Of a stretch of 64,000 nt of DNA, positions 5,737 through 49,332 are shown piece after piece. The notes under the pieces were generated by a model. It did not search any database. It saw nothing but the letters and a program-made list of their open reading frames with translations, and was not told the DNA's origin. The translations under genes were made by a program, and so were the position numbers. Position 1 is the first letter of the stretch, and each line of letters begins with the position of its first letter. Source of the stretch: an uncultured Gammaproteobacteria bacterium (GTDB lineage Bacteria > Patescibacteriota > Microgenomatia > Levybacterales > UBA12049); assembly GCA_964497535.1 (NCBI GenBank), contig CAZCCG010000003.1:133499-197498 (forward strand), written 5' to 3'.

Positions 5737-5740
5737 AAGT

Positions 5741-5846
5741 CCGATACTAATATACTATTTCATACGAATTATACAAATTTATAGTAGTATCTATTGGTTA
5801 TAAAAGTTTATCCGTATGATTAGTATTCATTCGTATATTTGTATCG
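5741..5846. repeat. palindromic intergenic repeat, copy A (CCGATACTAATATAC ... ATACGAAT ... ATTCGTAT ... ATTAGTA)
   Basis: Nested inverted repeats. The first 15 nt are identical to the reverse complement of 8896-8910. ATACGAAT and TTCATTCGTATA blocks are shared. Confidence 0.5.
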
Positions 5847-5871
5847 TTTATAAAGGAATTTAAAATGTAGG

Positions 5872-6783: not shown

Positions 6784-6854
6784 ATGTTTATTGTAAATCT
6801 TTTTAAAGTATTGTCAATGTAAGCACTGTAATAAAAACGTGTATAATAGAACGT

Positions 6855-31679: not shown

Positions 31680-33416
31680 ATGCCTAATGATCTGCCAACA
31701 CCAACTCAGCCTTCTTCCACACAGACACTTGCCGATATCCTTATGGCACAGCATCTTTTGACGAATGAGCAGTACGATCAAATGCGAGCAAAAAGTGCCC
31801 AGGAAGGGAAAAAAATTGATCAAGTTTTGGAAGAATCCCACTTGGTATCAGAAGAGAAAATTACAGAGGCAAAAGCACAACTTTTGGGAATCCCCTATAT
31901 TTCACTTGAGACCACATCTTTTTCTCCCCAAGCATTGAGTTTTATTCCCCGTCCGGTGGCAGAACGATTTCTTTTGATCCCCTTTTTATATGACGAAAAG
32001 ACGAAATTTCTTTCGGTAGCTATGAGCAATCCCACCGATTTGGAAGCAACATCATTTGTTCGGCAAAAAACCGGTTTGTCGATCAAAACGTTTGCTGCCA
32101 ATCCCTCTGCGGTTAAAAAAGCAATTAGTGAGCAATATCGGCAGGAATTGGTTGGGGAAGTAGGGCAAGCGTTAAAAGAGACGGAAGAGCTGCATGGAAC
32201 CAAAACAATCAATAGCGAACAAATAGCGGAAATTATCAAAGAAGCACCAATTGCCAAGATTGTTTCAACGATCCTTGAGTATGCGGTAAATAGCCGTTCT
32301 TCCGATGTCCATATAGAACCGCAGGATGATCGTGTACGGGTTCGGTATAGAATCGACGGTATTTTATATGATCGTTTGAGTTTACCCAAAAGTGTGCAGG
32401 AAGCTGTTATTTCCCGGATAAAAATTCTGTCCGAGATGAAAATTGATGAACATCGTACGCCCCAGGATGGACGGTTTAATTTTAAGGTAGGAAATAGTGA
32501 AGTTGATCTTCGTATCTCAACTATCCCTACTGCAAGCGGAGAAAAAATCGTCATGAGGTTACTTCGAAAATCCGGTGGAATTCCTTCACTTGCAGATTTA
32601 GGACTGACAGGAACAGCATTGAAAAATTTGGAAACGAGTATCCTGCGTCCCCATGGAATCATTATTGTTTGCGGTCCTACGGGTTCTGGAAAAACCACGA
32701 CATTATATGCTGTGTTATCCAGACTCAATACAACCCGCGTAAATATTATGTCGCTTGAGGATCCGGTAGAGTACCAACTTCCCGGTGTAAACCAGGTACA
32801 AATTAATCCCGGCGTTGGACTTACGTTTGCCACTGGTCTTCGGGCTTTTCTACGACAAGATCCCAATATTATTTTAGTGGGAGAAATTCGTGATGAGGAG
32901 ACAACAGATTTAGCACTTCAGGCAGCTTTGACCGGCCATTTAGTGTTTTCAACCCTGCATACTTCAGACGCCGCCGGAGCGTTACCTCGTCTGATCGATT
33001 TGGGTGCCGAACCGTTTCTGCTTGCCTCTACTCTTACCTCGGTAATGGCGCAAAGAATAGTTCGTAAGATTTGCTCACATTGTAAACAGGATTATGTTCC
33101 TCCCTCTCAAATTATTGATGAAATAAAAAAACAGTTGGGTCCGTTATTTCCTCCAACTACTACCGAGATCAAATTATACAAAGGGAAGGGCTGTAGTGAA
33201 TGCGGAGATTCGGGATATCTTGGACGTGTAGGTATTTTTGAAGTAATGCCTATAACTGAAACGATTTCAAATTTAATGCTGCAGCATCCTGATAGTCAGT
33301 CAGTACAACACAAAGCTGTTGAAGAAGGGATGATTACTATGAAACAAGATGGATATCTGAAGGTCTTAAAAGGAGTAACTACTGTGGAAGAAGTACTTCG
33401 TGTAGCTCAAGAGTAA
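31680..33416 (+). CDS. pilB: type IV pilus assembly ATPase PilB (GspE family)
   Basis: T2SSE_N-like N-domain, Walker A GPTGSGKTTTLYA and the tetracysteine CSHC ... CSEC motif. Confidence 0.9.
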   Translation: MPNDLPTPTQPSSTQTLADILMAQHLLTNEQYDQMRAKSAQEGKKIDQVLEESHLVSEEKITEAKAQLLGIPYISLETTSFSPQALSFIPRPVAERFLLIPFLYDEKTKFLSVAMSNPTDLEATSFVRQKTGLSIKTFAANPSAVKKAISEQYRQELVGEVGQALKETEELHGTKTINSEQIAEIIKEAPIAKIVSTILEYAVNSRSSDVHIEPQDDRVRVRYRIDGILYDRLSLPKSVQEAVISRIKILSEMKIDEHRTPQDGRFNFKVGNSEVDLRISTIPTASGEKIVMRLLRKSGGIPSLADLGLTGTALKNLETSILRPHGIIIVCGPTGSGKTTTLYAVLSRLNTTRVNIMSLEDPVEYQLPGVNQVQINPGVGLTFATGLRAFLRQDPNIILVGEIRDEETTDLALQAALTGHLVFSTLHTSDAAGALPRLIDLGAEPFLLASTLTSVMAQRIVRKICSHCKQDYVPPSQIIDEIKKQLGPLFPPTTTEIKLYKGKGCSECGDSGYLGRVGIFEVMPITETISNLMLQHPDSQSVQHKAVEEGMITMKQDGYLKVLKGVTTVEEVLRVAQE

Positions 33417-33420
33417 TACT

Positions 33421-34488
33421 ATGTCAATTCAGGAATTATTACAAATAACTATTACCAGTAAGGCATCTGATTTGCATCTCCTGCCGGCGATTCCTCCTGC
33501 GATTCGGGTAGACGGAGCGCTTCTGTATGTAACCAATTACAAACCACTTACTCCTGAAGAAATTGAGATGATGATATTTTCTATTTTAACTCCCGAACAA
33601 AAAGAATTATTGGTTACGAATAAAGAGCTGGATTTTTCAATTGGATTTGGAGGGGGTGCCTATGGAAATCTGGGTCGGTTTCGGGTAAATGCGTATTATC
33701 AACGGGGACAAATGGCCGGTGCCTTTCGATTTCTCCCTCCCAATATCCGGACGATAGAAAATTTGGGATTGCCAAAAATTTGTCATAGCTTTGCAGATTT
33801 AGAGCAAGGCCTTATATTAGTTACCGGTCCAACCGGACATGGAAAATCAACAACACTTGCTGCCATTATTAATGAAATCAATCTCAAGAGAGAAGCACAT
33901 ATTTTAACCATAGAAGATCCTATTGAGTACATGTATCCTACCGGAAAAAGTATTATTTCTCAGCGGGAAGTGGGATCTGATACACATTCGTGGCCTCTCG
34001 CGTTACGTTCATCCCTACGGGAAGATCCAGATGTTGTCCTCATAGGAGAAATGCGGGATCCAGAAACAATTGCTGCCGCAATTACTATTGCTGAGACAGG
34101 CCATTTGGTTTTTTCAACCTTACATACCAATTCTGCGGCTCAAAGTATTGACCGTATTATTGATTCATTTCCCGCTTTTCAGCAAAACCAAATTCGTGCT
34201 CAACTTGCATCAACGTTGAAGGCAATTCTATCTCAAAGGCTGTTACCTCTTATGAATGGAGGAAGGATACCTGCTGTTGAGATATTGCTTCAGACTACAG
34301 CCGTTGCAAGTAATATCCGCGATGGGAAGACTCATTTGATTGATAGTATTATCCAGACTTCCCAAGCAGAAGGAATGATTACTCTTGATGCTTCTTTGGC
34401 GAAATTGGTGAAAGAAGGAGAAATAACCCTCGAAACTGCGGAAGAATATGCTCTTCATAAAGATGAACTACTCAGGTTAGTAGGTTAG
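33421..34488 (+). CDS. pilT: type IV pilus retraction ATPase PilT
   Basis: GPTGHGKSTTLAAII, AHILTIEDPIEY and GEMRD ... HLVFSTLHTN. Confidence 0.9.
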   Translation: MSIQELLQITITSKASDLHLLPAIPPAIRVDGALLYVTNYKPLTPEEIEMMIFSILTPEQKELLVTNKELDFSIGFGGGAYGNLGRFRVNAYYQRGQMAGAFRFLPPNIRTIENLGLPKICHSFADLEQGLILVTGPTGHGKSTTLAAIINEINLKREAHILTIEDPIEYMYPTGKSIISQREVGSDTHSWPLALRSSLREDPDVVLIGEMRDPETIAAAITIAETGHLVFSTLHTNSAAQSIDRIIDSFPAFQQNQIRAQLASTLKAILSQRLLPLMNGGRIPAVEILLQTTAVASNIRDGKTHLIDSIIQTSQAEGMITLDASLAKLVKEGEITLETAEEYALHKDELLRLVG

Positions 34489-34506
34489 TTCGTCCACCAT
34501 TCTATT

Positions 34507-35712
34507 ATGAAATTAGTTTATCGAGCTGTTACGCGCAACGGCAAAACGGTACGCGGAGTTATAGAGGGAAAAGAAGTAAAAGATGCCGTAGATTTTTTGC
34601 GTTCTCGGGAGTTGCTCCCTATTCAGGTTGCACCGCAAAAGCAAAATGATCTCTCAAAGTATCTCCCCTTTATTAATGCATTTTCCTCAACTGATCTTGT
34701 ATTTTTTACCCGGCAGCTAGCTTCCATGCTTTCTTCAGGGTTAACATTGATGCAAGCTCTTAGAATTTTAAAAGAACAAGTACAAAAAGATAGCGTACTT
34801 ACTGTTATTCAAGGAATTGTGACTGATGTTGAAGATGGAAAACCACTTTCTCAAGCCCTTACCAAATATCCCAAGGTTTTTTCCCCTATATATATCTCTC
34901 TGATTACCTCGGCTGAGGTATCAGGTTTGTTAGATAAAGTTCTGTTGCGTTTGGCTGATAACCTTGAAAAACAAGAACAACTAAAAAGTACAATCAAGTC
35001 TGCACTTATGTATCCAATGATAGTTATTATAGGCATGATTGTGGTAGTAGTAATCATGATGATTTTTGTTATTCCTCAGCTTTCTACTATGTATGAAGGT
35101 ATTGGTATTCCCCTTCCTCTACCTACGCTTATTATTATTGGACTTTCTAACTTTGTTATTTACTTCTGGCCGCTGATTATACTTGGGGCTTTTTTTAGTG
35201 TTATTGTATTTAAAAAATGGCGCAGTAATCCATCAGGTAGATTAATAACTGATGATCTTATTCTCAAAGTACCTATCTTTGGAAAACTTATCAAAGAAAG
35301 TATCCTTACTGAATTTTCTCGTACATTTGGGATTCTTATCGGAAGCGGAACTCTGGTAGTCGACTCGCTCAAACAATCCGCCGATGTGGCCGGGAATGTT
35401 ATTTATAAAAATGCTATCAATGAAACAGCAAAACGGGTAGAAAAAGGACTGAGTATTGGCGATGCATTGGCTTACTATCCTCTCTTTCCTCCGATATTGG
35501 TACAAACCGTTAAAATTGGAGAGCAAACAGGAAAAGTAGATGAATCATTATTGAAAGTGTCAGAATATTTTGAACGAGAAGTAGAACAGACCATAAAAAC
35601 GTTGACGACCGCCTTGGAACCTATAATTATGGTGGTTTTAGGTGTAGGAGTAGCCTTTTTGATTATCTCGGTAATTACCCCAATTTATAGCTTAACAAAT
35701 GCTATTCAATAG
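34507..35712 (+). CDS. pilC: type IV pilus platform protein PilC (GspF family)
   Basis: Two GspF repeats with 3 TM helices. Length is 401 aa. Confidence 0.9.
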   Translation: MKLVYRAVTRNGKTVRGVIEGKEVKDAVDFLRSRELLPIQVAPQKQNDLSKYLPFINAFSSTDLVFFTRQLASMLSSGLTLMQALRILKEQVQKDSVLTVIQGIVTDVEDGKPLSQALTKYPKVFSPIYISLITSAEVSGLLDKVLLRLADNLEKQEQLKSTIKSALMYPMIVIIGMIVVVVIMMIFVIPQLSTMYEGIGIPLPLPTLIIIGLSNFVIYFWPLIILGAFFSVIVFKKWRSNPSGRLITDDLILKVPIFGKLIKESILTEFSRTFGILIGSGTLVVDSLKQSADVAGNVIYKNAINETAKRVEKGLSIGDALAYYPLFPPILVQTVKIGEQTGKVDESLLKVSEYFEREVEQTIKTLTTALEPIIMVVLGVGVAFLIISVITPIYSLTNAIQ

Positions 35713-37480: not shown

Positions 37481-39631
37481 GTGGCAAAACTATTGTGGCA
37501 TGCACGCTCTATTGTTACCATGACAGGACTGTCAGATAATCTGACAAAGCCTGTGATACAATTTGCTCATATGCAGGCTACAGCCTCAAAATTCCCTGCT
37601 CTTTTTCGGAAATACCGTCTAAAAGCGGAGTTCTCTACTCTATCCCAACTCGGACTCGCCCTCGCAGAAAAAGGATTAATCTACGAAGATAGTATTTTCT
37701 CTCATTGGCAAAAAGGAGACAGAATTCCAAATAGAACCACAATTCTCAAACTCATTGAGATTTTCATCGAGCGGAGAGCTATTACAACTCTTAACCAAGT
37801 AAACGAATTTTTAGTTTCTGTAGGGTACGGTTATATCTCTGAAGAAGAATTGAGAAGGATTCCAATAAAATTAGGAAATCCAATTTTTCAAGTTCCAACT
37901 GAAATTGAAAATTTTACAGGTAGAGAAAATATTATTAAAGAAGTTGTTAATAGAAAGGATATTTTCGGAAAGACTATTTTAATCCATGGGTCGGCAGGTA
38001 TAGGAAAAACTGCATTGGCAATAAAATTAGGTCATTTGCTCAAAAATAAATTTACTGACGGAATCCTATGGTACAAGATTGAGGAAGATAATATATCTGA
38101 TATTCTTTTTTCTATTGCTCACATTTTCGGTGAGGATTTTTCAGAAATTAAGAATAAACAAACAAGGGCTACTATAGTTCGATCACTTCTTGCCACTAAA
38201 AATGTGTTAATTATTCTTGACAGTGCGGAATTAAATGATGAAATCTATTTGCTTATTCCTAACTCGCAGTTTTGTACTACGATTATTACTTCACAGAAAA
38301 ATCATTTTAAAGTATCAATTAATTTTGTTGATATTTCTCTTAAACCATTTACTGATACAGAAGTCATATCACTTTTTCAAGAAGTATTAAAAAAAAAGTT
38401 TTCAAAAACTAATTCATCGATAATTTTAGAATCTGCTAATCAGTTTGGTAATCTGCCTCTAGCTATTCATATTTTTGCACGACAAATACGACACTCTAAT
38501 ATCAGTGCCTCAGAAATCCCTGAGCTATTAAATACTGAAGAAAATATTTTTCAAGACCTAAATTATGAAAACAAAAATCTTCATGTAGCGATTGATATGA
38601 GCTATAAAAAACTCGATATCAAAATGAAATCCGTCCTAGTTTCTGCATCTATTTTTAAAGGAAAAGATTTTTCTATTGATTCAATAGGCTATATTAATGG
38701 GCTTTCAATTGTAGTTTCAAGAAAAATTCTCCAAAGTTTAGTGGATCTTTCACTTATCGAACCTTCTGCTCATGATAGATATAGAATACATCCTGAAATC
38801 AGAGAATTTGTACGAGGTAAACTTGACTATCCTAGATCTTCATATTTAACATTAATTGCTATATTTATCTTTCTCATCTTTGCATGTTGGTGGATATTTT
38901 TACAAATCTTTTATAATAATCGAGAAGCATTACTATTCTTTTCTTGTACTTACGGAATTATTGCATTGTTTGGTGGGATTTGTGGGATGGATGTTTCAAA
39001 AAAATGGGGTGGGATTAAAACTCTTATGGGAAGTGCAACTTTAATGTTCGCTTCAGGCTTATGTTTACAAGCAGTTGGTCAAGCTTCATACACGTACTAT
39101 TTAATAATTGCTCCTTACCAAACTCCATACCCTTCTTTTGGGGATATTGCATATTTCGGTACTATCCCCTTCTATATCTACGGAATTATGCTTTTGGCTA
39201 AATCATCAGGGATTAAATTAAGTATCCAATCATTCAAAAAAAAACTGATAGCTATTATTATTCCAATTGTGATGTTAACAATTGCTTATTATCTTTTTCT
39301 TCAAGGTTATACTTTCAATCTTAATAATCCAGTTAAAATATTTTTGGATTTCGGTTATTCATTAGGAGAAGCGATATACATATCAATTGCTATAATTGTT
39401 TTTATTTTCTCAAGAACTATACTAGATGGAATTATGAAATCAAAAGCATTATGGTTATTGATAGCGTTAGTTGTACAATTTTTAGGTGATTATATTTTCT
39501 TATTAGATGTTAAATTAAAAACTTATTATCCTGGGAATTATGATGATTTTATATTATTACTTGCTTACTTTACTATGACAATTGCACTTCTGAATCTAAA
39601 ATCTATCCAGGTTAAAATAAAAAACTATTAA
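37481..39631 (+). CDS. HTH(XRE-like)-NB-ARC STAND NTPase fused to a C-terminal polytopic membrane domain
   Basis: XRE-like LSQLGLALAEKG ... WQKGDRIP. Walker A GSAGIGKT, Walker B VLIILDS, TTIITSQ and GNLPLAI (GxP) motifs. About 8 TM helices from residue ~470. Confidence 0.7.
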   Translation: MAKLLWHARSIVTMTGLSDNLTKPVIQFAHMQATASKFPALFRKYRLKAEFSTLSQLGLALAEKGLIYEDSIFSHWQKGDRIPNRTTILKLIEIFIERRAITTLNQVNEFLVSVGYGYISEEELRRIPIKLGNPIFQVPTEIENFTGRENIIKEVVNRKDIFGKTILIHGSAGIGKTALAIKLGHLLKNKFTDGILWYKIEEDNISDILFSIAHIFGEDFSEIKNKQTRATIVRSLLATKNVLIILDSAELNDEIYLLIPNSQFCTTIITSQKNHFKVSINFVDISLKPFTDTEVISLFQEVLKKKFSKTNSSIILESANQFGNLPLAIHIFARQIRHSNISASEIPELLNTEENIFQDLNYENKNLHVAIDMSYKKLDIKMKSVLVSASIFKGKDFSIDSIGYINGLSIVVSRKILQSLVDLSLIEPSAHDRYRIHPEIREFVRGKLDYPRSSYLTLIAIFIFLIFACWWIFLQIFYNNREALLFFSCTYGIIALFGGICGMDVSKKWGGIKTLMGSATLMFASGLCLQAVGQASYTYYLIIAPYQTPYPSFGDIAYFGTIPFYIYGIMLLAKSSGIKLSIQSFKKKLIAIIIPIVMLTIAYYLFLQGYTFNLNNPVKIFLDFGYSLGEAIYISIAIIVFIFSRTILDGIMKSKALWLLIALVVQFLGDYIFLLDVKLKTYYPGNYDDFILLLAYFTMTIALLNLKSIQVKIKNY

Positions 39632-39768: not shown

Positions 39769-40905
39769 ATGACTTATAAGTTTTTTGACAGGCAAACATT
39801 ATCGAATATTCCTACTCCTACCCCCTTTTTTGTTTTCAGCCGTGATGCTTTAATCAATAATCTAAAAGAGTATCAATCTTATCTTCCTTCAAATACGGAA
39901 GTTTGCTATTCAATGAAAGCAAATTCTGAAAAACAAGTCATAGAAACACTTAACGATGTTGGTGCTAGTTTTGAAGTAGCTTCTAAATACGAATTAGCCT
40001 TACTAGAATTACTTGAGGTTCCAGCAGATCGAATAATTTATGGTTCTTCTGTAAAATCTGCTGATCAGATTCTTGCTTTTGTAAAATATGGCGTGAGTCG
40101 TTTCGCTTGTGATTCCGAACCTGAATTATTGAAACTTGCGAAATATGCTCCAGGGGCCCAAATATATATTAGGGCGCTTGTTGATGATAAAGCTAATAGT
40201 GTTTTTCACATGTCTGAGAAATTTGGTGTATATCTTAAGGAAGTTATTAAACTACTAATTAAAACAAGAGAATTAGGTTTAATTCCTTACGGAATAAGTT
40301 TTAATGTGGGTTCTCAAGCGAGAAATGAATATGCATGGGCGCGAGGGATAACTGATATTTCATATGCTATGTCTGAGTTACTCAAGAATAATATAAAAAT
40401 ACAAGTAATCAATATGGGTGGAGGTTTTCCTCATCAATATGAGGATTATGACAATATACCAAAAATACAGCAAATTGCAGAGCATATTAAAAATGCAACA
40501 GAAAAGTTACCTTATCCTGTATCATATATCGTAGAGCCTGGGCGAGGACTTGTTGCAAATACATATGTCTTAATAGTTAGTGTTACAGAAAAAATAAAAA
40601 GACATAATGGGTACTGGCTCCATCTGGATGCAGGAGTATACAATGCTCTTTTAGAGGCAATGGCTTATCAAGGCAGTATCAGATATTATATTGAAGCATT
40701 ACAACAATATCGGTCAGATCAAAAAGAACAATTTATTTTAACTGGGCCTGCTTGTGATGATTTAGACGTAATTGATGAAGATGCATTATTGCCAGCAGAT
40801 ATAAAAGTTGGTGACAAATTAGTTATTTACGATACTGGTGCCTATAGTTTTACTCTTATAACACCATTTAATGGTTACCCAAAACCGGGAACAGTCGTGA
40901 TATAA
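39769..40905 (+). CDS. eukaryotic-type ornithine/basic-amino-acid decarboxylase (fold-type III PLP enzyme)
   Basis: PLP-lysine motif CYSMKAN plus GGGFP, EPGR and GPACDDLD substrate-loop motifs. It is co-linear with ODC over the whole length. Confidence 0.85.
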   Translation: MTYKFFDRQTLSNIPTPTPFFVFSRDALINNLKEYQSYLPSNTEVCYSMKANSEKQVIETLNDVGASFEVASKYELALLELLEVPADRIIYGSSVKSADQILAFVKYGVSRFACDSEPELLKLAKYAPGAQIYIRALVDDKANSVFHMSEKFGVYLKEVIKLLIKTRELGLIPYGISFNVGSQARNEYAWARGITDISYAMSELLKNNIKIQVINMGGGFPHQYEDYDNIPKIQQIAEHIKNATEKLPYPVSYIVEPGRGLVANTYVLIVSVTEKIKRHNGYWLHLDAGVYNALLEAMAYQGSIRYYIEALQQYRSDQKEQFILTGPACDDLDVIDEDALLPADIKVGDKLVIYDTGAYSFTLITPFNGYPKPGTVVI

Positions 40906-41626
40906 AATTATTTTTTTGTTCTTTCGTAACAATTGGTGCCAAAATAGTTTTTTCTTGCCAATATTCACAATTTTGTGGAGGGTTAACTTCACAAATTTCA
41001 TATTCAATTTTATCTTTCTTAAATCCTGCATCTTTCAATTTACGTAAGTGCTTATCAGAAAATGTAGTAGCTTCATCAGAATAGTATGTAAGTATTCCTC
41101 CAGGTTTTAAAATCCTATATGCTTCTTTAAAGAACCAGAAATGATTTGAATGAATTTCTTCTTCAGTTAGAGGATAAGTATCAAAAAGGATACCATCAAA
41201 TGTTTCGTCTAAAAGTAAAGGGGTTACATTTTGCCAAAAACCGCTTAATATATGTATACGATTTTCACCGATGGCTTGATGAAAATCTTGAACACATTTT
41301 GCGATTACATCAGGGTGACACTCAATAATATAATGATTAGTAATATTATGTGATTGAATAGCTTTTGCAGACAAACCAAGTCCATAACCAAGCTCTAAAA
41401 CGCAGCCTCCATTTGAAGACGCAATTTGAGCTAGCTTATTCATATAGCTTAATTCCCAATCTTCCATAACCGGATGTCCTGCAATCCGGAGAGTATGTTC
41501 GCTAAAAATAGCTGGGTTTTTTGCCCAATCTTCCTTCTGTTTTGGAAAACCAATATTTTTTCTTGATTTAATTGTATCCATCCTAATTATCTTACTACTG
41601 TACATTGTTAGAATAAATCTTGTCAA
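40868..41626 (-). CDS. guanidinoacetate N-methyltransferase (GAMT/RMT2)-like SAM methyltransferase
   Basis: HTLRIAGHPVMEDWELSYM ... GGCVLELGYG ... HYIIECH ... FDGILFDTYPLTEE ... LKPGGILTYY ... NPPQNCEYW. Near-colinear with GAMT. Confidence 0.75.
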   Translation of the reverse strand: MTRFILTMYSSKIIRMDTIKSRKNIGFPKQKEDWAKNPAIFSEHTLRIAGHPVMEDWELSYMNKLAQIASSNGGCVLELGYGLGLSAKAIQSHNITNHYIIECHPDVIAKCVQDFHQAIGENRIHILSGFWQNVTPLLLDETFDGILFDTYPLTEEEIHSNHFWFFKEAYRILKPGGILTYYSDEATTFSDKHLRKLKDAGFKKDKIEYEICEVNPPQNCEYWQEKTILAPIVTKEQKNNFISRLFPVLGNH

Positions 41627-41699
41627 TAAAGATTATTCTTACTAAAGAAGTTTTAGGTTTGACAAGTAATTCTAGATGAGATATTCTTAACTAAATTTA

Positions 41700-42059
41700 A
41701 TGAACATATTCAATTGGATTATCATTTTATTGTTGAGTTTATTGGCAGGTTTTGCGGATTCAAAAGGATTCTATTTTGCTTCACAAATATGGCCAGGAGG
41801 CAGCTTAGATTTAATAGCTCTTCTTAAATCAGGAGGCGCATTTGTAGTAGGATTGATTTTCTATTGGGGAACAATTTTTTTCATGAATAAAGTTGGTTTA
41901 AATTCTGCGTCTTTTCAGACCGCTATCTGGTTTATTGCTGTTATAATTGGAGTTTCTATAGCAACAGGTGATTTTATGAAATGGCAATCTCTGGATAAAA
42001 TAGTTGCAGTTGTTACTGTAATATGTTTCCTTTTTCTACTTGTTCGTAATGGAAATTAA
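41700..42059 (+). CDS. small 4-TM membrane protein (SMR-sized), function unknown
   Basis: 119 aa with four hydrophobic helices. Confidence 0.35.
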   Translation: MNIFNWIIILLLSLLAGFADSKGFYFASQIWPGGSLDLIALLKSGGAFVVGLIFYWGTIFFMNKVGLNSASFQTAIWFIAVIIGVSIATGDFMKWQSLDKIVAVVTVICFLFLLVRNGN

Positions 42060-42070
42060 CTTTTATTACA

Positions 42071-42853
42071 ATGGGAGATATTAAAATAGAAGAAAATTTT
42101 GAGAAGTTTTCACCTCGAGAATATTTAGAAGAATATTACTCTCATATTGGATCTGAGAATGATAGTCTTCTGCGTTTCTTTAAAGATGTCTATGAGATTA
42201 TTCCTTCAGAGGTTATGATACTTGAGTTCGGTGGAGGTCCAACAGTTTATCAATTGATTACTGGTGCTACTAAAGCAAAATTTATTTATTTTTCAGACTA
42301 TTTAGAATTAAATTTGAACGAAGTCAAAAAATGGAAAAATAATAATAATGATGCGTTCGACTGGAGTGACTATATCAAAAGAGCTTTGGAAATAGAAGGG
42401 GTACCTTATGTTGCTAAAAGGCAGATTGATGAAAGAGCTGAGTTACTTCGTCAGAAAATCACTCATTTTATTCATTGTGATGCCTTCCAAAATGATCCAC
42501 TTGGGAAACAATATAGAGATTTTTTTGACGTAGTAAGTGTAAATTTTGTTCCCGAATCTATATCAAAAAACAAACAACAATGGCAACAAGCTATGATAAA
42601 TATTTGTAGTTTAGTTAAACCAGGAGGAGTTTTTATAATGACTGCCTTAAAGGGAGCTAATTATTGGCATAATGGAAATAAAAAATTTGCTGCAGCATAT
42701 ATTGATGAAAATGACGTTGAGGATGTTCTAAAAGATAATGGATTTAAACAAGAAACAATTAAAATAAGTGTAAGTCCTGCAGAAACACTTAACGAGGATG
42801 GAAAAGGAGCACAAGGTTTTCAAGGAATTATTTTTGTTTTTGCACAAAAATAA
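42071..42853 (+). CDS. NNMT/PNMT/TEMT-family SAM-dependent N-methyltransferase
   Basis: FSPREYLEEYY, GGGPTVYQL, DYLELNLNEVKKW ... AFDWSDY and C-terminal GFQGIIFVFAQK mirror the PF01234 family conserved blocks. Confidence 0.8.
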   Translation: MGDIKIEENFEKFSPREYLEEYYSHIGSENDSLLRFFKDVYEIIPSEVMILEFGGGPTVYQLITGATKAKFIYFSDYLELNLNEVKKWKNNNNDAFDWSDYIKRALEIEGVPYVAKRQIDERAELLRQKITHFIHCDAFQNDPLGKQYRDFFDVVSVNFVPESISKNKQQWQQAMINICSLVKPGGVFIMTALKGANYWHNGNKKFAAAYIDENDVEDVLKDNGFKQETIKISVSPAETLNEDGKGAQGFQGIIFVFAQK

Positions 42854-42893: not shown

Positions 42894-43739
42894 TTGCTAT
42901 CGTCAAACGTTTGTGTATATAGTAAAAGAGCTATGAGGCTATACGCAATCCACAAATTTCTTCTTGTATATTTGGTTTTTCTATTAGCTTATTGGATTAT
43001 CCTACATTTATCTGCTCAACAAACAAGTATATGGAATTATCTTTATTCATTTGCATTTAGTTTAGTTCCACTTCTAGGAAGCTTAGTTGGTATATATATT
43101 TCTAAATCTTGGGGTTTATTGTCAAGCGCAATTGGGAAAGCTATTTTCTATATTTCAGCGGGATTATTTTTTTGGGGTCTTGGAAGTATGATTTGGGCAT
43201 ATTATAATATTTTTTTAAATATTCCTGCTCCTTACCCTTCTATATCTGATGCAAGCTATGTTTTAAGTTGGCCTTTATGGGGAATAGGAATAATTAATCT
43301 TTCTCATGCAACTGGGGCAAAATTTTCACTAAGGCAAATAAAAGGAAAACTACTACTTTTTATTATTCCTATTATTTTGATTGTTTTATCTTATTATTTA
43401 TTAGTAGTTGTAGCGCGTGGGGGATTTATTACTGATTTTTCTGAAAATGGATTCAAATCTTTTTTTGATTTAGCTTATCCAATTGGGGATGTAGTGATAC
43501 TATCTCTTGCTGTTTTAATTTATGGTTTATCGTTTCGATATCTGGGTGGAAAATATAAGGCGACAATTCTTTTGTTACTCTTTGGTTTTGTTTTAAATTA
43601 CATTGCCGATTTTATCTTTTCTTATACCACTACAGTTGAGACTTTTTACGTAGGTGATTTGGGTGATCTTGTCTTTACACTAGCTTTTTTCTTCATTACA
43701 TTTGGCGTTCTAGGGTTTTATAGAGTAAGGAATACATAA
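42894..43739 (+). CDS. polytopic membrane protein paralogous to the C-terminal domain of the NB-ARC protein
   Basis: Shared blocks PYPSISDASY / PYPSFGDIAY, GAKFSLRQIKGK / GIKLSIQSFKKK, IIPIILIVLSYYL / IIPIVMLTIAYYL, DLAYPIGD / DFGYSLGE. Confidence 0.5.
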   Translation: MLSSNVCVYSKRAMRLYAIHKFLLVYLVFLLAYWIILHLSAQQTSIWNYLYSFAFSLVPLLGSLVGIYISKSWGLLSSAIGKAIFYISAGLFFWGLGSMIWAYYNIFLNIPAPYPSISDASYVLSWPLWGIGIINLSHATGAKFSLRQIKGKLLLFIIPIILIVLSYYLLVVVARGGFITDFSENGFKSFFDLAYPIGDVVILSLAVLIYGLSFRYLGGKYKATILLLLFGFVLNYIADFIFSYTTTVETFYVGDLGDLVFTLAFFFITFGVLGFYRVRNT

Positions 43740-43744
43740 GTATT

Positions 43745-44023
43745 ATGGATGTTTTTGCACAAATGGCCCAAAAGATTATCACAGAGCAGGAAGGTATTGT
43801 CGGTCCAGTAGCCCTGGAACAGGCCAAAAAAGTCTCAGGACTTACTGTTGATTGGTCAAAGCATGAAGTAACAATATCGGGGAATAAAAGTGATGTTCTG
43901 GAACATCTTGTTGAGCAATATGGACATCTTTTTGGGCAAGCTTCTATTGAAGTGTGTAAAGATGCAGTTCGGGGAATGATAACTAAAATACCTAAGGATC
44001 AAATACCTTCTTTACTCCTATAA
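43745..44023 (+). CDS. small hypothetical protein upstream of the histidine kinase
   Basis: 92 aa and soluble. It starts 6 nt after the preceding gene and ends 24 nt before the kinase gene. Confidence 0.35.
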   Translation: MDVFAQMAQKIITEQEGIVGPVALEQAKKVSGLTVDWSKHEVTISGNKSDVLEHLVEQYGHLFGQASIEVCKDAVRGMITKIPKDQIPSLLL

Positions 44024-44047: not shown

Positions 44048-45502
44048 ATGAGTAGTTCGCAATCAGGAGATTCTCAGAATCAAGCCAATATATCAGAAGA
44101 GTTGGGGCATATTACGCAAGAAATATACAAAAAAAATGCCGAACTTGCGCATACCAATAAAACTCTTTCGGTTCTTCGAAAACTCGATGAGATTATTTTA
44201 AGCAGTGTTACTTCACTTCATAAAGTTGCACAACAAGTAGCAGATGCTATCGTCCAAGAAGCAGAGTTCCAAGCAGTTGCGGTGTTTCTTATAAATCAGG
44301 AAGAACAATGTCTGGTAGAGCTTGCTATTTCGCAAACTGCTGCTATACAACTTGCCGAGACTGAGTTTGGGATACACTTCAAAGATCTTCGAATACCTCT
44401 TTCAGAAGAAGAAAATCTACTGGTGCAGGTAATGCGCGAAAAAACTCAAAAAGTAGGACGTGATTTATATGCTGTATATAGACCTGCTTTTACTATAGAT
44501 CAAACTGCCCGGCTGGAAGAGCTTGAACGAGTCAGGACAATATTAGTAATTCCCTTGGTAGTACGTGAACAACTGATTGGAATTATGGCAATTAGTCTGG
44601 AGCAGGAAGAAGCCAATCTAACGGATTTCCAAAGAGATTTGGTGACACGGTTAACAGGAGTAGTAGGAATTGCTATGGATAATGCCCTTCTCTATCGTCA
44701 AATAGAGCAAGCAAATGAAAAGTTGAAGCAACTTGATAGATTGAAAGATGATTTCGTTTCTCTTGCTTCTCATGAACTGCGTACTCCTATGACAGCTATT
44801 AAATCGTATTTATGGATGGCTCTTGCCGGTAAAGGAGGAGAACTTACGGAAAAACAAAAATATTACATTCATCGTTCTTATGATTCAACCGAACGGCTTA
44901 TAAAGCTGGTTAACGAAATGCTCAATGTTTCGCGTATTGAATCGGGCCGTATAACTCTCGATGTTCATGCGATTGATATGAATACACTGGTTGATGATGT
45001 TTTTGAGGAATTGAAGCCTCGAGTGCAAGAACTAGGACTTAATTTGAAAGTAGATCATATTTCCCTACCTCAAGTTTTGGCAGATACAGATAAAATAAAA
45101 GAGGTTTTGATTAACCTGATTGGGAATTCACTCAAATTCACCCCCCCGGGAGGAATGATCTCCGTAAGCTTCAAAGTAAATGCTGAAATGATCGAGACAA
45201 GTGTCTCAGACACCGGTAAAGGTATTGCACCTGAGGATATTTCTAAGTTATTCCAGAAATTCGGCATGATAGACAATAACTATTTAACAATTCAAGATGT
45301 TCGGGGAACAGGACTGGGGCTTTATATTAGTAAATCAATTATAGAACTTCTTGGGGGTAAGATTTGGGCAAAATCTGAGGGACTAGGGAAAGGGACGACA
45401 TTCACTTTCTCACTCAAACAATTTTCGGAAAAAGATAAATCAAGCTTTGATCAACAGCAGCAAGGAAAAGAAAAAATAGATATTATTCCTACACAGTTAT
45501 AA
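44048..45502 (+). CDS. cytoplasmic sensor histidine kinase with GAF domain
   Basis: No TM segment. GAF-like middle region. H-box ASHELRTPMTAI, N-box LINLIGNSLKFTPPGG, G1 DTGKGIAPED and G2 GTGLGLYISK. Confidence 0.9.
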   Translation: MSSSQSGDSQNQANISEELGHITQEIYKKNAELAHTNKTLSVLRKLDEIILSSVTSLHKVAQQVADAIVQEAEFQAVAVFLINQEEQCLVELAISQTAAIQLAETEFGIHFKDLRIPLSEEENLLVQVMREKTQKVGRDLYAVYRPAFTIDQTARLEELERVRTILVIPLVVREQLIGIMAISLEQEEANLTDFQRDLVTRLTGVVGIAMDNALLYRQIEQANEKLKQLDRLKDDFVSLASHELRTPMTAIKSYLWMALAGKGGELTEKQKYYIHRSYDSTERLIKLVNEMLNVSRIESGRITLDVHAIDMNTLVDDVFEELKPRVQELGLNLKVDHISLPQVLADTDKIKEVLINLIGNSLKFTPPGGMISVSFKVNAEMIETSVSDTGKGIAPEDISKLFQKFGMIDNNYLTIQDVRGTGLGLYISKSIIELLGGKIWAKSEGLGKGTTFTFSLKQFSEKDKSSFDQQQQGKEKIDIIPTQL

Positions 45503-45618
45503 ATGCCCAAATTCCCCTCTTGACAACAGATGAGTATATATGGTTTGCTAGATAAAGAGTTAAAAGATTTTAACTCTTGACAAGTAATAAAACAATTTGT
45601 TTCAATAGAAATATACCT

Positions 45619-46137
45619 ATGAATTTATTCAAATCCTTTAAATCTTCACAGTCCGGTTTTACCCTTATTGAGTTATTGGTTGTTATCGGTATTCTCGGTG
45701 TTTTGGCGGCCGCATTGGTTGCAACAATTGATCCATTTGAACAGCTGAAAAAAGCACAGGATGCCAATGTTAAAAATACTGCAGTTGAGTTTGTAAACGC
45801 AAATATTCGATACTATACAACTCACAATGCACTCCCGTGGGCAAACGGAGTTTCCAATTGTAGTTCAACCGGAAGCGTCGGTTCATCCAGTAACATCGGA
45901 TGTGTAGGCGCTCTTATTGATGATGGAGAGTTGAAGAGTGGATTTACTACCGTTTCTACGATTAATAGTGTTATCTTTACTGGCACATCCAATTCGGTAG
46001 TTGCATGTTTCCAGCCGCAATCAAAATCTCAATGGAGAGATCCCAACACCAAATATTCATCTGCTGGGATAGCAACTACAGGTTGTATCTCTCAGACCAG
46101 TGCCGGTGTTACCACCTGCTACTGGTGTGCTCAATAA
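45619..46137 (+). CDS. type IV pilin (prepilin N-terminal methylation domain), major-pilin candidate
   Basis: Leader MNLFKSFKSSQSG, then FTLIELLVVIGILGVLAA with E5. C-terminal Cys pair CYWC. The listed ORF starts earlier, at 45577. Confidence 0.85.
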   Translation: MNLFKSFKSSQSGFTLIELLVVIGILGVLAAALVATIDPFEQLKKAQDANVKNTAVEFVNANIRYYTTHNALPWANGVSNCSSTGSVGSSSNIGCVGALIDDGELKSGFTTVSTINSVIFTGTSNSVVACFQPQSKSQWRDPNTKYSSAGIATTGCISQTSAGVTTCYWCAQ

Positions 46138-46144
46138 TATCTTC

Positions 46145-48166
46145 ATGCAGGCAGGCATAAAATTAATTCCCTTCTTCCTTTTATTCTTTTTGTTAGTCCT
46201 TTATATCCATAACCTTTCTCGGGATATTTACGGTGGCGATATCGGAGATTTGGTAACTGCTGCTTCTGTAGCTGGAGTTCCTCATGCTCCTGGGTATCCC
46301 TTGTTTACATTTCTGGGGTTTTTAGTAACACGATTTCAAGGGTTGGCTACCCCTGCTTTTCTGGTAGGTTTGATATCCGCATGTGCCGGTGCATTGGGAA
46401 TACTGTTTCTTTTTTTGCTTATTAAAAGGCTTACCAAAAATACTATGGTATCAGTAATTAGCTCTCTTATACTAGCTTTCTCGTATTGGTTTTGGTTATA
46501 TAGTGAATTGGCTGAGGTTTTTATTTTAAATTCATTTTTCGCAATCCTCCTTTTGTATCTTTCGCTTCGCATTCGAGAGACTCCCTCAACCAAATTATTT
46601 CTTCTCTTTAGTTTTGTGTTGGGATTATCTCTTACCCATCACCAGACGATTACCTTGATCTTCCCGACCCTCCTTTTGATTGTGCTAAAGCAACTGAAAA
46701 TATTGTGGAAGGATAAACGATTACTGCTGGGATGTTTTGTAGCCGGTTTGGTAGGTTTATCAGTTTATTTATATGTTCCTATAGCTGCCAGCCATAACCC
46801 TATCATTAATACCAATTCTGTGCATGACTTGGACTCTTTCTTGCATTTGGTATTGCGCAAGGACTATGGTACTTTCAATGCCGGTCCTTTTGTTTCATCA
46901 ATACCCATGGAAAGAATGATAGCTTTAAAGGTTTATTTATTTGATGTAGTTTCCCAACTTACATTTCCAGTAATACTTCTGAGCATTATTGGAATAGGAG
47001 CTCTCTATAAAAAGGATCAGTGGCTATGTATATCTTTTTTAACCGGGTTTTTAATAACCGGACCAATCTTTACTACCTATGCAGGGTTTCCATTGAGTAA
47101 CGCATTTCTTATCGGTGTCAGTGAGCGTTTTTATATTCTCTCCACAATTTTTATTATAATTTTTTTCCCTTTTGGTCTTTTGTACCTTACTCAAAAGCTT
47201 GGATCCTTCTTTCATAACAAATACTACACACTATGGTTCCAGGCAATATTTTTGCTTATTCCCTGTCTGCTATTTTTTTATAACTTTCCCAAAACTGATT
47301 TGTCACAGATACATATCGGGGATAATTTGGGATATGATTTGTTGAAGTCTCTCCCTCAAAACGCCGTGCTTTTGATTGAAGGAGATACCGGTGTCTACAA
47401 TACATGGTATATCCACTATGCGAAGGGATATAGAAAAGATATTGATGTTGTAAATATTAATAATTTCGTAGGAAATAGTTATTTCCGTTCCCAGGTGGAT
47501 CGATATAAAAAGGTTGTTCGAAACGGTTCAACTGCCGATCGAATGGCAATCATTATAACAAAAATTAACCAAAACCGGCCTGTTTTTTCTCATATTAAGA
47601 TACAAACAAAAAATTATCCCCTTCCCTGGATTCCCTACGGACTGGTATATAAATTATTGTTGCCTAACCAGAAACCTCCTTCTGAGCCGGAGTTTACTCT
47701 GATGACTCATACAGTGTGGAATTCAATTCAGACTCCTTATAAATCCTTGAGAAACAAAAGCGCTTTTGGGAATATAACAATTTCGGATATCCCTCCGTAT
47801 TATTCAGATGCCCTATTGGTAACCGGCTCGTATTTTCTTTCTACGTATCATAATGATAGTATGGCACAAGAGTTTTTTACTAAAGCAATGGATGTAGATC
47901 CTGCATATTATAAAAACTACGAAGTGTGGGGTGGCTATTATTTGTCCAATCATCAATGTAATCCGGCTGCAAAATATTTTATAAAGACGATTGAACTGAG
48001 GCCATATGAGAAGATTGCTTATTTTCTGCTCTATAGTGCGTATCATGAATGTTCCCACAATAATACGGCTTCAAAGCAGGTAGTTGTGGAATATCAAAAG
48101 TATTTCAATGATTCCTTTTTCAAGGAATTGAAAAGTCAAATGAAGGATATAAAAATAGCCTTGTGA
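46145..48166 (+). CDS. GT-C fold glycosyltransferase of the DUF2723/TMEM260-like family with C-terminal TPR repeats
   Basis: N-terminal RDIYGGDIGDL ... GVPHAPGYPLF motif, more than 10 TM helices, then TPR-like repeats (AMDVDPAYYKNYEVWGGYY). Confidence 0.6.
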   Translation: MQAGIKLIPFFLLFFLLVLYIHNLSRDIYGGDIGDLVTAASVAGVPHAPGYPLFTFLGFLVTRFQGLATPAFLVGLISACAGALGILFLFLLIKRLTKNTMVSVISSLILAFSYWFWLYSELAEVFILNSFFAILLLYLSLRIRETPSTKLFLLFSFVLGLSLTHHQTITLIFPTLLLIVLKQLKILWKDKRLLLGCFVAGLVGLSVYLYVPIAASHNPIINTNSVHDLDSFLHLVLRKDYGTFNAGPFVSSIPMERMIALKVYLFDVVSQLTFPVILLSIIGIGALYKKDQWLCISFLTGFLITGPIFTTYAGFPLSNAFLIGVSERFYILSTIFIIIFFPFGLLYLTQKLGSFFHNKYYTLWFQAIFLLIPCLLFFYNFPKTDLSQIHIGDNLGYDLLKSLPQNAVLLIEGDTGVYNTWYIHYAKGYRKDIDVVNINNFVGNSYFRSQVDRYKKVVRNGSTADRMAIIITKINQNRPVFSHIKIQTKNYPLPWIPYGLVYKLLLPNQKPPSEPEFTLMTHTVWNSIQTPYKSLRNKSAFGNITISDIPPYYSDALLVTGSYFLSTYHNDSMAQEFFTKAMDVDPAYYKNYEVWGGYYLSNHQCNPAAKYFIKTIELRPYEKIAYFLLYSAYHECSHNNTASKQVVVEYQKYFNDSFFKELKSQMKDIKIAL

Positions 48167-48183
48167 ATGGATGAGGAAGGATT

Positions 48184-49332
48184 ATGAAACAGGTTATTAT
48201 TCTTATTATTACAGCTAAAATATCGATAGTTCTTCTTATATTTCTAGCGTATAGTCTGTTACCGTTTGGTAAAGTGTATTATTATTCGAATTTTGTATAT
48301 CCGCCAGGTGAAGAAATCAGTTTGAAGTCAGCATACAAAACGTGGGATGCACAACATTATTTATTTCTGAGTGAAAAAGGGTATAAAAAGGGAAATTTTT
48401 CAGATAGCTTTTACCCTCTCTTTCCTAATATTATACGATTTTTTGCCAGCATCTTTTATGATTCCTTCTGGGTCGGTATAGTGTTTTCTAATCTATTCTC
48501 AACTATAGCTTGTATCTATTTCTATTTATTTGTAAAAGAACGATTTCCTAAAGATGGCGTTGCGTATACTGCACTTATTTTTCTTTTGGCGTTTCCAACT
48601 GCTTTTTATTTCTCGCTAATTTACACCGAATCACTATTTTTTTTACTTGCCATCTGTTTCTTTTATTACTTATACAAAAACGATTACCGGTTAGCTGCAG
48701 TACTTGCTTTTTTTCTCCCTTGGACCCGACCCATGGGTCTTTTCATTATTATCCCATTTGCATTTTATTATATATCTCATCATAGGAGTTTACTGCATAA
48801 CCAACCCTTTCTGGATCGTAAGTTTACTATCGATAAAAATATAGTATTTCTTCTCAGTCCTGTGTGCGGTTTTCTGGGATATTTATTGTTTATGCAATTA
48901 AAAACAGGAAACCCTTTTGAAGGTTTCAGTATGCAGCAATATAATATAGCTCATTGGAGTGTTGGGAGTATTTTTTCACCGCTGCTTTTTTTGCAAAACT
49001 TTTTCTCCCATAACCTGACAATTCATGGTTTTACCAACTCAGTAATAGATAGGATATTTTTTGTTATTTTCCTGGTATCACTGCCTTTTATATACAGAAA
49101 AACTACCAAACCACTATTTTTGTATTCACTGTTTCTTGGTTTTACTCCGTTTTTAGGTAGCTTTATGTCTTATACTCGATATATGCTGGTTATTTTCCCG
49201 ATTTTTATTACTGCGGCGATTTATATTGAAAACAAAAAATATGCCGAGCTTAAATATCCTTTATTATTTTTATCTCTTATAATGCAATCCCTGTTTTTGG
49301 TTATGCATTCTCTGAATTATTGGGTGGCGTAG
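48184..49332 (+). CDS. GT-C fold mannosyltransferase-like membrane protein (PIG-V-like)
   Basis: WDAQHYLFLSEKGY motif after the first TM helix. Roughly 9-10 TM helices. Confidence 0.45.
   Translation: MKQVIILIITAKISIVLLIFLAYSLLPFGKVYYYSNFVYPPGEEISLKSAYKTWDAQHYLFLSEKGYKKGNFSDSFYPLFPNIIRFFASIFYDSFWVGIVFSNLFSTIACIYFYLFVKERFPKDGVAYTALIFLLAFPTAFYFSLIYTESLFFLLAICFFYYLYKNDYRLAAVLAFFLPWTRPMGLFIIIPFAFYYISHHRSLLHNQPFLDRKFTIDKNIVFLLSPVCGFLGYLLFMQLKTGNPFEGFSMQQYNIAHWSVGSIFSPLLFLQNFFSHNLTIHGFTNSVIDRIFFVIFLVSLPFIYRKTTKPLFLYSLFLGFTPFLGSFMSYTRYMLVIFPIFITAAIYIENKKYAELKYPLLFLSLIMQSLFLVMHSLNYWVA

Follow-up and report, generated by a model that had tools for sequence, protein, structure and literature searches.

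What does a relative of the animal amine N-methyltransferases do in a bacterium? The question is raised by a gene at positions 42071..42853 of a 64,000-nucleotide stretch of contig CAZCCG010000003.1 (assembly GCA_964497535.1, positions 133,499 to 197,498 of the forward strand), which was analysed as a whole and is called the window here. The protein that it encodes, referred to below as the NNMT-like protein, is a genuine prokaryotic relative of the animal methyltransferases NNMT, PNMT, and INMT. Genes of this kind are linked, and in places fused, to genes for amino acid decarboxylases, and are also linked to those of a family of small proteins with four transmembrane helices (the 4-TM family). 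The gene is best placed in a widespread, uncharacterised prokaryotic subfamily of PF01234, one whose members are coupled to arginine-type decarboxylases and, in many cases, to a 4-TM protein resembling the small multidrug resistance (SMR) transporters. The reading favoured here, at somewhat better than even odds (about 55%), is that decarboxylase and methyltransferase form a two-step cassette, which most likely converts arginine to N-methylated agmatine that is then exported.

Family, fold, and active site

The open reading frame (ORF) has an ATG start and is intact, and the ORF listing holds no competing ORF of >=50 aa on the other frames of this segment. The same protein and gene order are found in two independent Logan assemblies (L001 and L002; loci are cited by L numbers and individual proteins by P numbers), so the ORF is not an accident of assembly. 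Against Pfam PF01234 the protein scores 165.7 bits (E = 1.5e-48; gathering cut-off 25), with residues 5-260 aligned to profile positions 8-261 of 261. A phmmer search of PDB sequences retrieves NNMT (5e-30), INMT (6e-25), and PNMT (7e-22), and identity to NNMT and PNMT is 25-28% over the full length. An AlphaFold2 (AF2) model made from an alignment of 30 homologues has a predicted local distance difference test score (pLDDT) of 94.1 and a predicted template modelling score (pTM) of 0.92; Foldseek superimposes it on NNMT and PNMT with TM-scores of 0.81-0.85 and a root-mean-square deviation of 2.5-2.9 Å over about 255-264 columns, in agreement with the class I methyltransferase fold and the helical N-terminal lid of the family. 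A first-pass annotation of this DNA, made from its letters alone, had placed the gene in PF01234, an assignment that it staked on a significant match to that family and on an uninterrupted ORF; both were found, the match running from end to end. The motifs that it quoted (FSPREYLEEYY, GGGPTVYQL, DYLELNLNEVKKW, and AFDWSDY) are all present; the C-terminus, which it gave as 'FFVFAQK-type', actually reads IIFVFAQK.

When the protein is aligned to NNMT, the site for S-adenosylmethionine (SAM) is seen to be kept: LEFGGGPT at 51-58 (the ExGxGPT loop, E52-G54-G56-P57-T58), D76-Y77 with the acid that follows strand 2, N81, and C136-D137, the Cys-Asp pair that contacts the adenine. The N-terminal YLxxYY motif is kept as well, with Y18, Y22, and Y23 aligned to their NNMT equivalents. 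E162 aligns with PNMT E185, NNMT D167, and a Glu of INMT, a position that is occupied by the acidic residue beside the acceptor nitrogen. In the region of NNMT D197 and PNMT E219, phmmer and MAFFT alignments reveal no acidic residue; the segment reads 190-MTALKGAN-197, and the positions of PNMT E218 and E219 are taken by G195 and A196. (The nicotinamide pocket of NNMT includes D197, S201, and S213, and the substrate-binding acids of PNMT are E185, E219, and D267.) The lack of an acid in this segment argues that the enzyme is neither NNMT nor PNMT in the strict sense: NNMT proper (EC 2.1.1.1) is ruled out by the D197 region, and PNMT proper is ruled out by the E219 position even though its E185 has an equivalent in E162.

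Another group of residues is conserved in all the prokaryotic sequences, whichever type of decarboxylase accompanies them: E29, N30, F36, N158, F159, E162, S/T191, A196, P207, A237, and D/E238. The counterpart of NNMT Y242, which lies in the pocket, is position 237; the adjoining D/E238 is peculiar to the prokaryotic branch and might accommodate a second positive charge of the substrate. That the pocket varies so little from one decarboxylase type to another points to a single class of substrate throughout the subfamily.

Coupling to decarboxylases

Insight into the substrate comes from a survey of 46 loci, each from a different species, found by a GTDB scan that used one genome per species and a single 10-residue pattern. 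The ORFs around these loci were clustered, recurring families were named by Pfam, and the loci were then re-scanned with the family HMMs. A decarboxylase of one of four families lies beside the methyltransferase at 26 of the 46 loci, mostly adjacent to it and on the same strand. The pyruvoyl-dependent arginine decarboxylase (PvlArgDC, PF01862) occurs at 13, usually directly upstream of the methyltransferase; the fold-I Orn/Lys/Arg decarboxylase (OKR_DC_1, PF01276) occurs at 7; and fold-III decarboxylases and a pyruvoyl enzyme resembling AdoMet_dc (PF02675) occur at 3 each. Two of the fold-III enzymes are of the SpeA type, with the helical-bundle and C-terminal domains Arg_decarb_HB/C, whereas the decarboxylase of the window and that of L037 represent a short form of the fold. 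The window enzyme matches Pfam Orn_Arg_deC_N (1.3e-44) and Orn_DAP_Arg_deC (2e-13).

Three of these families are also found fused to an NNMT-like domain. An exhaustive search returned fusions with PvlArgDC (P0203), with OKR_DC_1 (P0247, in which the NNMT-like domain comes first), and with AdoMet_dc (P0296). Within the window's own clade, whose methyltransferases share 45-62% identity, decarboxylases of different families take turns in an otherwise conserved operon: a fold-III enzyme in the window, a PvlArgDC that adjoins the methyltransferase in L049 and L050, a PvlArgDC about 5 kb upstream in L003, and an AdoMet_dc-like protein in L051 and L053. Non-orthologous replacement of a partner, together with fusions, is the classic mark of enzymes that act one after the other in the same pathway. 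Since PvlArgDC and SpeA are arginine-specific enzymes, the intermediate shared by the two steps would most simply be agmatine. The first-pass annotation had guessed that an amine is methylated, and this guess is now strongly backed by gene context, that is, by adjacent decarboxylases of four families and by the fusions. The neighbours that are most informative in this respect, the PLP (pyridoxal phosphate) decarboxylase and a GAMT-like methyltransferase, had escaped it.

Two further fusions were encountered, one to LPG_synthase_C, an MprF-type aminoacyl-transferase (P0193), and one to a second class I methyltransferase domain (P0306); they hint at further amine tailoring in some lineages. In addition, at deltaproteobacterial-type loci (L006, L009, L014, L020, L023, L055) the cassette is preceded or followed by a conserved trio, consisting of a TonB-dependent receptor, a periplasmic protein of the ABC_sub_bind family (PF04392), and a hybrid histidine kinase with sCache_4 and HAMP domains.

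The decarboxylase linkage also bears on the name that public annotation would give this protein. The NCBIfam equivalog model for GntF (NF041360) matches it at 131.4 bits, compared with a cut-off of 60, and NCBI already names the relatives P0023, P0031, and P0040 GntF; a true GntF orthologue would act on a cyclic guanidine in a guanitoxin-like pathway. This is highly improbable. Pfam and NCBIfam searches of the neighbours reveal no other gnt gene (the hydroxylases, the PLP cyclase GntC, the aldolase, the transaminase, the kinase, or the O-methyltransferase), the sources of the proteins that carry the name GntF are metagenome-assembled genomes (MAGs) of Gaiellaceae, Binatia, and Electrothrix-like bacteria, lineages that are not known to make guanitoxin, and the 60-bit cut-off lies far below the score of an orthologue and appears permissive. 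Given the lack of gnt genes nearby, the lineages concerned, and a decarboxylase as the conserved partner, the GntF label looks over-propagated.

The GAMT-like neighbour

Convergent to the decarboxylase gene of the window, and overlapping its end by 38 nt (40868-40905), is a gene for a second 'animal-like' methyltransferase. Its product has 237 aa when read from the ATG at 41581 (the longest ORF reaches 41626), retrieves human GAMT (3orh, 8.7e-45) and rat GAMT (1xcj, 6e-43) by phmmer, and belongs to Pfam family PF27704 in a precomputed assignment. It keeps the equivalents of rat E45, which is the glutamate that binds the guanidino group, and of D134 (MEDWE aligns with MERWE, and LFDTYPL with LYDTYPL). 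The latter residue is the catalytic base of GAMT (PMC12471008). The alignment contains a 13-residue gap, which falls exactly at rat GAMT residues 168-180. The backbone amides of this segment (L170/T171) are said, in work by Komoto et al. from 2004, to bind the carboxylate of guanidinoacetate, and on that account the loss of the segment fits a guanidino substrate that has been decarboxylated. N-methylation of a guanidino group is the activity predicted for the GAMT-like enzyme. In L030, too, a gene of this kind is found beside a SpeA gene and near an NNMT-like gene.

The 4-TM protein

The gene that ends 11 nt upstream of the NNMT-like gene encodes a 119-aa protein of the 4-TM family. A homologue directly adjoins the NNMT-like gene at 14 of the 46 GTDB loci, and also in L049 and L054-L056. 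By profile search the family comprises at least 237 clusters of about 121 aa each, all of them called "hypothetical" and none with a Pfam domain, so that it could be defined as a new family. The linkage is seen as well when the 4-TM family is taken as the starting point: three of its four members on long contigs lie in operons of PvlArgDC, NNMT-like, and 4-TM genes whose stop and start codons overlap, and the fourth (P0177) follows a different class I methyltransferase.

D20, in the first transmembrane helix (TM1), is invariant in 60 of 60 members; Q73 and W77 are also invariant, and E71, where TM3 begins, is shared by 59 of the 60. The bias of charged residues (K+R) across the membrane is weak, with a mean of -1.6. 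The AF2 model has a pLDDT of 88.5, and the top four Foldseek matches to it in the PDB are Gdx-Clo and EmrE, with query-based and target-based TM-scores (TMq and TMt) of 0.54-0.63 and 0.58-0.70 but weak E values of 0.2-0.8. The best of these is Gdx-Clo 6wk5 (TMq 0.63, TMt 0.70). A search of PDB sequences with the 4-TM profile gave no link to any solved protein. SMR proteins export guanidinium and quaternary ammonium cations, which is the chemistry to be expected of a methylated agmatine; export would therefore be the most economical role for the 4-TM protein.

A proposed pathway and its alternatives

In the pathway that these genes suggest, the decarboxylase would convert arginine to agmatine, and the 260-aa enzyme would then add one or more methyl groups to the primary amine of agmatine, in the manner of GntF and animal INMT with their own substrates. 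(Both GntF and INMT add two methyl groups.) In the window a guanidino nitrogen would probably also be methylated by the GAMT-like enzyme, and the cationic product would probably leave the cell through the 4-TM protein. The family, the fold, the cofactor site, and the gene linkages are shown by the data above; agmatine as the substrate, the number of methyl groups, the product, its export, and the regulation of the pathway are all predicted from gene content and alignments. No description of the cassette or of a methylagmatine pathway was found in the literature, of which the coverage was incomplete, so that this is absence of evidence only. N-methylagmatine units are present in saskemycin, where the paper on that compound attributes them to an SznE-like arginine methyltransferase and not to a PF01234 enzyme.

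Several observations weigh against this pathway. The decarboxylase of the window is closer to the Lys/Orn decarboxylase 5gjm (1.5e-44) and to ornithine decarboxylases (ODCs) than to the arginine decarboxylase of PBCV-1 (2e-32), the one fold-III arginine decarboxylase with a solved structure, and its LDAGVY motif, mapped by eye, carries an Asp like that of ODCs; for both reasons, ornithine or lysine is a possible substrate in the window. The OKR_DC_1 and AdoMet_dc-like partners are not arginine-specific. There is no decarboxylase within 8 kb at 20 of the 46 loci, several of which lie on short contigs where some may be cut off. As to export, none of 16 members of the 4-TM family matches PF00893 even at E<=10, and hhalign comparisons with EmrE and SugE give probabilities below 1%, so the resemblance that the model bears to SMR proteins is one of fold only and falls short of demonstrating membership of that family. 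Moreover, in L051-L053, which are close relatives of the window, the 4-TM slot between decarboxylase and methyltransferase is taken by an unrelated membrane-associated protein of 306-425 aa (L051 7091-8011, L052 820-2097, and L053 3506-4750). This protein represents an unannotated family with a hydrophobic C-terminal half, and it may be a functional replacement of the 4-TM protein.

The points that concern the decarboxylases raise the serious alternative of a diamine or polyamine N-methyltransferase that acts on putrescine, cadaverine, or an aminopropylated polyamine, in which case the partner in the window would be an Orn/Lys decarboxylase and the AdoMet_dc-like proteins would be true SAM decarboxylases. 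It is in keeping with this that the best solved relatives of the window decarboxylase are Lys/Orn decarboxylases and ODCs, and that AdoMet_dc-family or OKR_DC_1 genes, of no fixed specificity, accompany some of the relatives. Even so, such an activity appears rather unlikely, because the commonest partner is PvlArgDC (13 loci and a fusion), the SpeA-type partners carry domains specific to arginine decarboxylases, PvlArgDC and the fold-III enzyme are interchangeable within the window's clade, the GAMT-like neighbour implies a guanidino substrate, and no aminopropyltransferase gene was seen in the cassettes.

The points that concern the membrane protein bear on a different alternative, in which the methyltransferase modifies an amine bound to the membrane or envelope, for example on a lipid head group or in the cell wall, and the 4-TM protein is its membrane partner or anchor, or a flippase. 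The missing sequence homology to SMR transporters would allow for such a role, as would the fusion of P0193 to LPG_synthase_C and the pairing of the 4-TM member P0177 with a different methyltransferase. This must nevertheless be regarded as improbable. The decarboxylase fusions argue for an intermediate that is a free amine, no genes for lipid synthesis recur in the neighbourhoods, and all characterised PF01234 enzymes, to our knowledge, act on soluble small molecules. Methylation of agmatine, followed by export, continues to be the reading preferred here.

Distribution and origin

The first-pass annotation regarded the family as overwhelmingly metazoan, with few bacterial copies. This does not hold. 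The 46 loci of the GTDB scan span at least 12 bacterial phyla and Woesearchaeota; they occur in Myxococcota, Desulfobacterota-type "Deltaproteobacteria", Chloroflexota, Bacteroidota, Actinomycetota (including Mycobacterium szulgai), Spirochaetota, Planctomycetota, Cyanobacteria, Verrucomicrobiota, Patescibacteria and Saccharibacteria, Cloacimonadota, and Binatia. A word-indexed search returned 55 relatives, nearly all from metagenomes or MAGs, among which the first animal protein (from Branchiostoma, 33% identity) ranks 53rd. An exhaustive HMMER search of 1.84e9 representatives clustered at 50% identity yielded 1562 at E<=1e-3, 924 at E<=1e-10, and 178 at E<=1e-30. The relatives that share the synteny of the window are labelled Patescibacteria or Saccharibacteria, with one "uncultured Gammaproteobacteria", so the source of the window may be a bacterium of the Candidate Phyla Radiation. 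In Mycobacterium szulgai DSM 44166 (L007) the cassette looks intact, with an OKR_DC gene at 5364-7118 and the NNMT-like gene at 8010-8768. In the chromosome of a second cultured strain, Desulfonema magnum 4be13 (L030), the NNMT-like gene (8001-8753) has an in-frame stop at the codon that aligns with residue 24 of the window protein, and the GAMT-like gene near the SpeA gene (14704-15565) is split in two; this cassette looks decayed, unless the record contains sequencing errors, and the strain was for that reason rejected as a cultured model.

The origin of the gene was addressed with a neighbour-joining tree of 60 sequences, of which 56 were prokaryotic and 4 were animal (human NNMT, PNMT, and INMT and the Branchiostoma protein; the human sequences were confirmed as full-length and near-identical to PDB chains). 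In 99 of 100 bootstraps the animal sequences form a group apart from all the prokaryotic ones; the place of the window protein is deep inside a prokaryotic clade. Such a tree is sufficient to reject a recent transfer from an animal to a bacterium and, having only four animal sequences, speaks to recent events and not to ancient ones. Horizontal transfer from animals, which the first-pass annotation had raised and for which it had proposed a phylogeny, is not supported by this result.

The same evidence bears on the notion that the gene is a recently acquired NNMT or INMT of animal type that detoxifies pyridines, indolamines, or thioethers. The full-length identity to NNMT and PNMT would be in line with such an origin, and the locally low GC content (0.29-0.33, compared with about 0.38 elsewhere) would permit the segment to be foreign. 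Yet the protein is 35-62% identical to dozens of prokaryotic proteins and at most 33% identical to its best animal match, the animal sequences separate in the tree, the D197 region lacks its acid, and the conserved operon context is prokaryotic. An animal acquisition therefore has very little to recommend it.

Genes around the cassette

The genes of the region are listed in Table 1. Two of the neighbours, the 4-TM protein and the polytopic membrane protein, had been described correctly by the first-pass annotation. Between 41700 and 45502 the genes are co-directional and only 5-79 nt apart, which makes a single transcription unit plausible.

Table 1. Cassette genes and their neighbours, in window coordinates
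Feature	Position	Strand	Basis
NB-ARC (STAND) NTPase with C-terminal multi-pass membrane domain	37481..39631	+	Pfam NB-ARC 1.5e-10; NCBIfam AfsR/HaaT-like partial matches
Fold-III PLP decarboxylase, Orn/Lys/Arg/diaminopimelate (DAP) family	39769..40905	+	Pfam and PDB matches
GAMT-like methyltransferase	40868..41581	-	phmmer to GAMT; PF27704
119-aa 4-TM protein, SMR-like fold	41700..42059	+	conserved linkage; AF2; Foldseek
NNMT/PNMT/INMT-family (PF01234) SAM-dependent N-methyltransferase, prokaryotic subfamily	42071..42853	+	Pfam; PDB; AF2/Foldseek; SAM motifs
Polytopic membrane protein, 268 aa from ATG (281 aa from TTG at 42894)	42933..43739	+	synteny; no Pfam match
92-aa protein between membrane protein and kinase	43745..44023	+	synteny; no Pfam/NCBIfam match
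Cytoplasmic GAF-HisKA-HATPase histidine kinase, end of co-directional string	44048..45502	+	Pfam GAF_3, HisKA, HATPase_c

The order of NNMT-like protein, membrane protein, 92-aa protein, and histidine kinase is kept in L003, L033, L049, L051, L052, and L053, and the 92-aa protein holds the same position in L003, L033, and L049-L053. The kinase is syntenic in the close clade, and a response regulator downstream of it is likewise syntenic across the window's clade. Upstream, homologues of the NB-ARC protein are present in L003 (65% identity) and in L049-L051. The stand-alone membrane protein encoded downstream of the methyltransferase has a paralogue, about 30% identical, in the C-terminal membrane domain (residues ~487-710) of the NB-ARC protein, and a domain of this type, which has no Pfam match, recurs in L003, L033, and L049-L053. 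The domain common to the two proteins could be a shared ligand-sensing module; the membrane protein possibly serves as a sensor module, and the NB-ARC protein is probably a regulator. An anti-phage defence role for the NB-ARC neighbourhood was also considered, and was set aside when PADLOC gave no meaningful matches. The NB-ARC regulator, the membrane protein, the 92-aa protein, the GAF kinase, and the response regulator probably control the pathway or respond to it.

A link between the cassette and signalling is plausible but unproven. Many cassettes have genes for histidine kinases, response regulators, or GGDEF/EAL proteins at their sides. One speculative and rather doubtful extension of the pathway holds that the cassette is the synthase and exporter of a hitherto unknown diffusible cationic signal, an N-methylated agmatine, that is read out by adjacent sensor genes; this would amount to polyamine-type signalling between cells in many phyla, including probable bacteria of the Candidate Phyla Radiation (CPR). 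The readers would be the membrane protein, the 92-aa protein, the GAF histidine kinase, and the NB-ARC membrane regulator in the window's clade; elsewhere they would be hybrid kinases with sCache or CHASE4 domains, GGDEF/EAL proteins, and the TonB receptor with its periplasmic binding protein.

Regulatory elements were sought in the DNA itself. At gathering score, Rfam finds no family in the whole 64 kb, not even a tRNA; at E<=1 it finds nothing relevant over 36.5-46.5 kb, and no guanidine riboswitch. A candidate promoter, the consensus-like -35/-10 pair TTGACA-17-TATTCT, closely precedes the 4-TM gene (41659-41687); shuffled sequence yields matches of this kind as readily, and the promoter and terminator scan as a whole showed no enrichment either.

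The lowest GC content of the window is found in the segment 38001-44000 (0.29-0.33, compared with ~0.35-0.42 elsewhere). Horizontal acquisition of an islet could account for this, but so could the mere presence of AT-rich membrane-protein genes. The rest of the window looks like an ordinary bacterial chromosome, with gyrA, gyrB, carAB, pyrB, SAH hydrolase, and type IV pilus genes. The cassette is flanked (31680-35712, 45577-46137, and 46100-49332) by ATPase and platform genes of the type IV pilus/type II secretion kind, a prepilin-like protein, and two large PMT_2/TMEM260-like glycosyltransferases. A tyrosine recombinase at 7847-8788 (+), which has Phage_integrase and N-terminal SAM-like domains, is probably a housekeeping enzyme of the XerC/D type rather than the marker of a mobile element.

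Significance

The interest of the locus does not reside in a bacterial "animal" enzyme but in a gene context from which one can predict a specific metabolite pathway that is easy to test and apparently undescribed. If the pathway is correct, it would provide the first function for the prokaryotic branch of a family that has been studied almost only in animals, it would make methylated agmatine a new branch of bacterial arginine/polyamine metabolism, and it would correct the GntF label that is spreading in public annotation. The 4-TM proteins, a family of at least 237 clusters that Pfam does not cover, would also gain a function that can be tested, as distant structural cousins of the guanidinium and quaternary ammonium exporters. 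The repeated exchange of decarboxylase families beside the same methyltransferase is a clean natural case of non-orthologous displacement and a strong handle for pathway discovery, and the recurrent nearness of the cassette to sensor kinases and cyclic di-GMP enzymes raises the possibility of a new signalling molecule.

Comparison with known systems

The animal enzymes NNMT, INMT, and PNMT (2iip, 2a14, and 1hnn) share with the window protein the fold, the SAM motifs, the N-terminal Tyr-rich lid, and the acid at the position of E162, and INMT and PNMT likewise N-methylate primary or secondary amines. The prokaryotic branch differs from them in N30, F36, N158, A196, P207, and A237-D/E238, which are specific to it, and in its operon context with a decarboxylase.

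GntF, the N-methyltransferase that forms pre-guanitoxin in the biosynthesis of cyanobacterial guanitoxin, is the only characterised bacterial PF01234 enzyme found in the literature searched, and its model is the best-scoring curated bacterial one for the window protein. GntF methylates the primary amine of an arginine-derived diamine that bears a guanidine. Agmatine, the predicted substrate in the window, has the same chemistry, being an arginine-derived guanidino compound with a free primary amine. In contrast to GntF, the window protein scores far below orthologue level and has no gnt cluster around it; its partner is a decarboxylase instead of a route through hydroxylase, cyclase, aldolase, and transaminase, and its clade has a context of its own, made up of the 4-TM protein, the membrane protein, the 92-aa protein, and the histidine kinase.

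The GAMT-like neighbour can be compared with the GAMT of creatine synthesis, from which it differs in being bacterial, in lying beside a decarboxylase gene, and in a substrate that is probably a decarboxylated guanidino compound. The 4-TM protein resembles the SMR proteins Gdx and EmrE in its size (~105-120 aa), its four transmembrane helices, a single invariant acid in TM1, and a conserved Trp in TM3; its weak K+R bias is compatible with the dual topology of SMR proteins, and the cargo predicted for it is a guanidinyl or ammonium cation. It differs from them in having no detectable sequence homology and in its acid, which is Asp20, later in the helix, and not Glu13/14; unlike Gdx genes, the cassette of the window has no guanidine riboswitch upstream. 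Finally, if the cassette should indeed make a signal, the sensing of norspermidine by NspS/MbaA in Vibrio would be a loosely analogous system.

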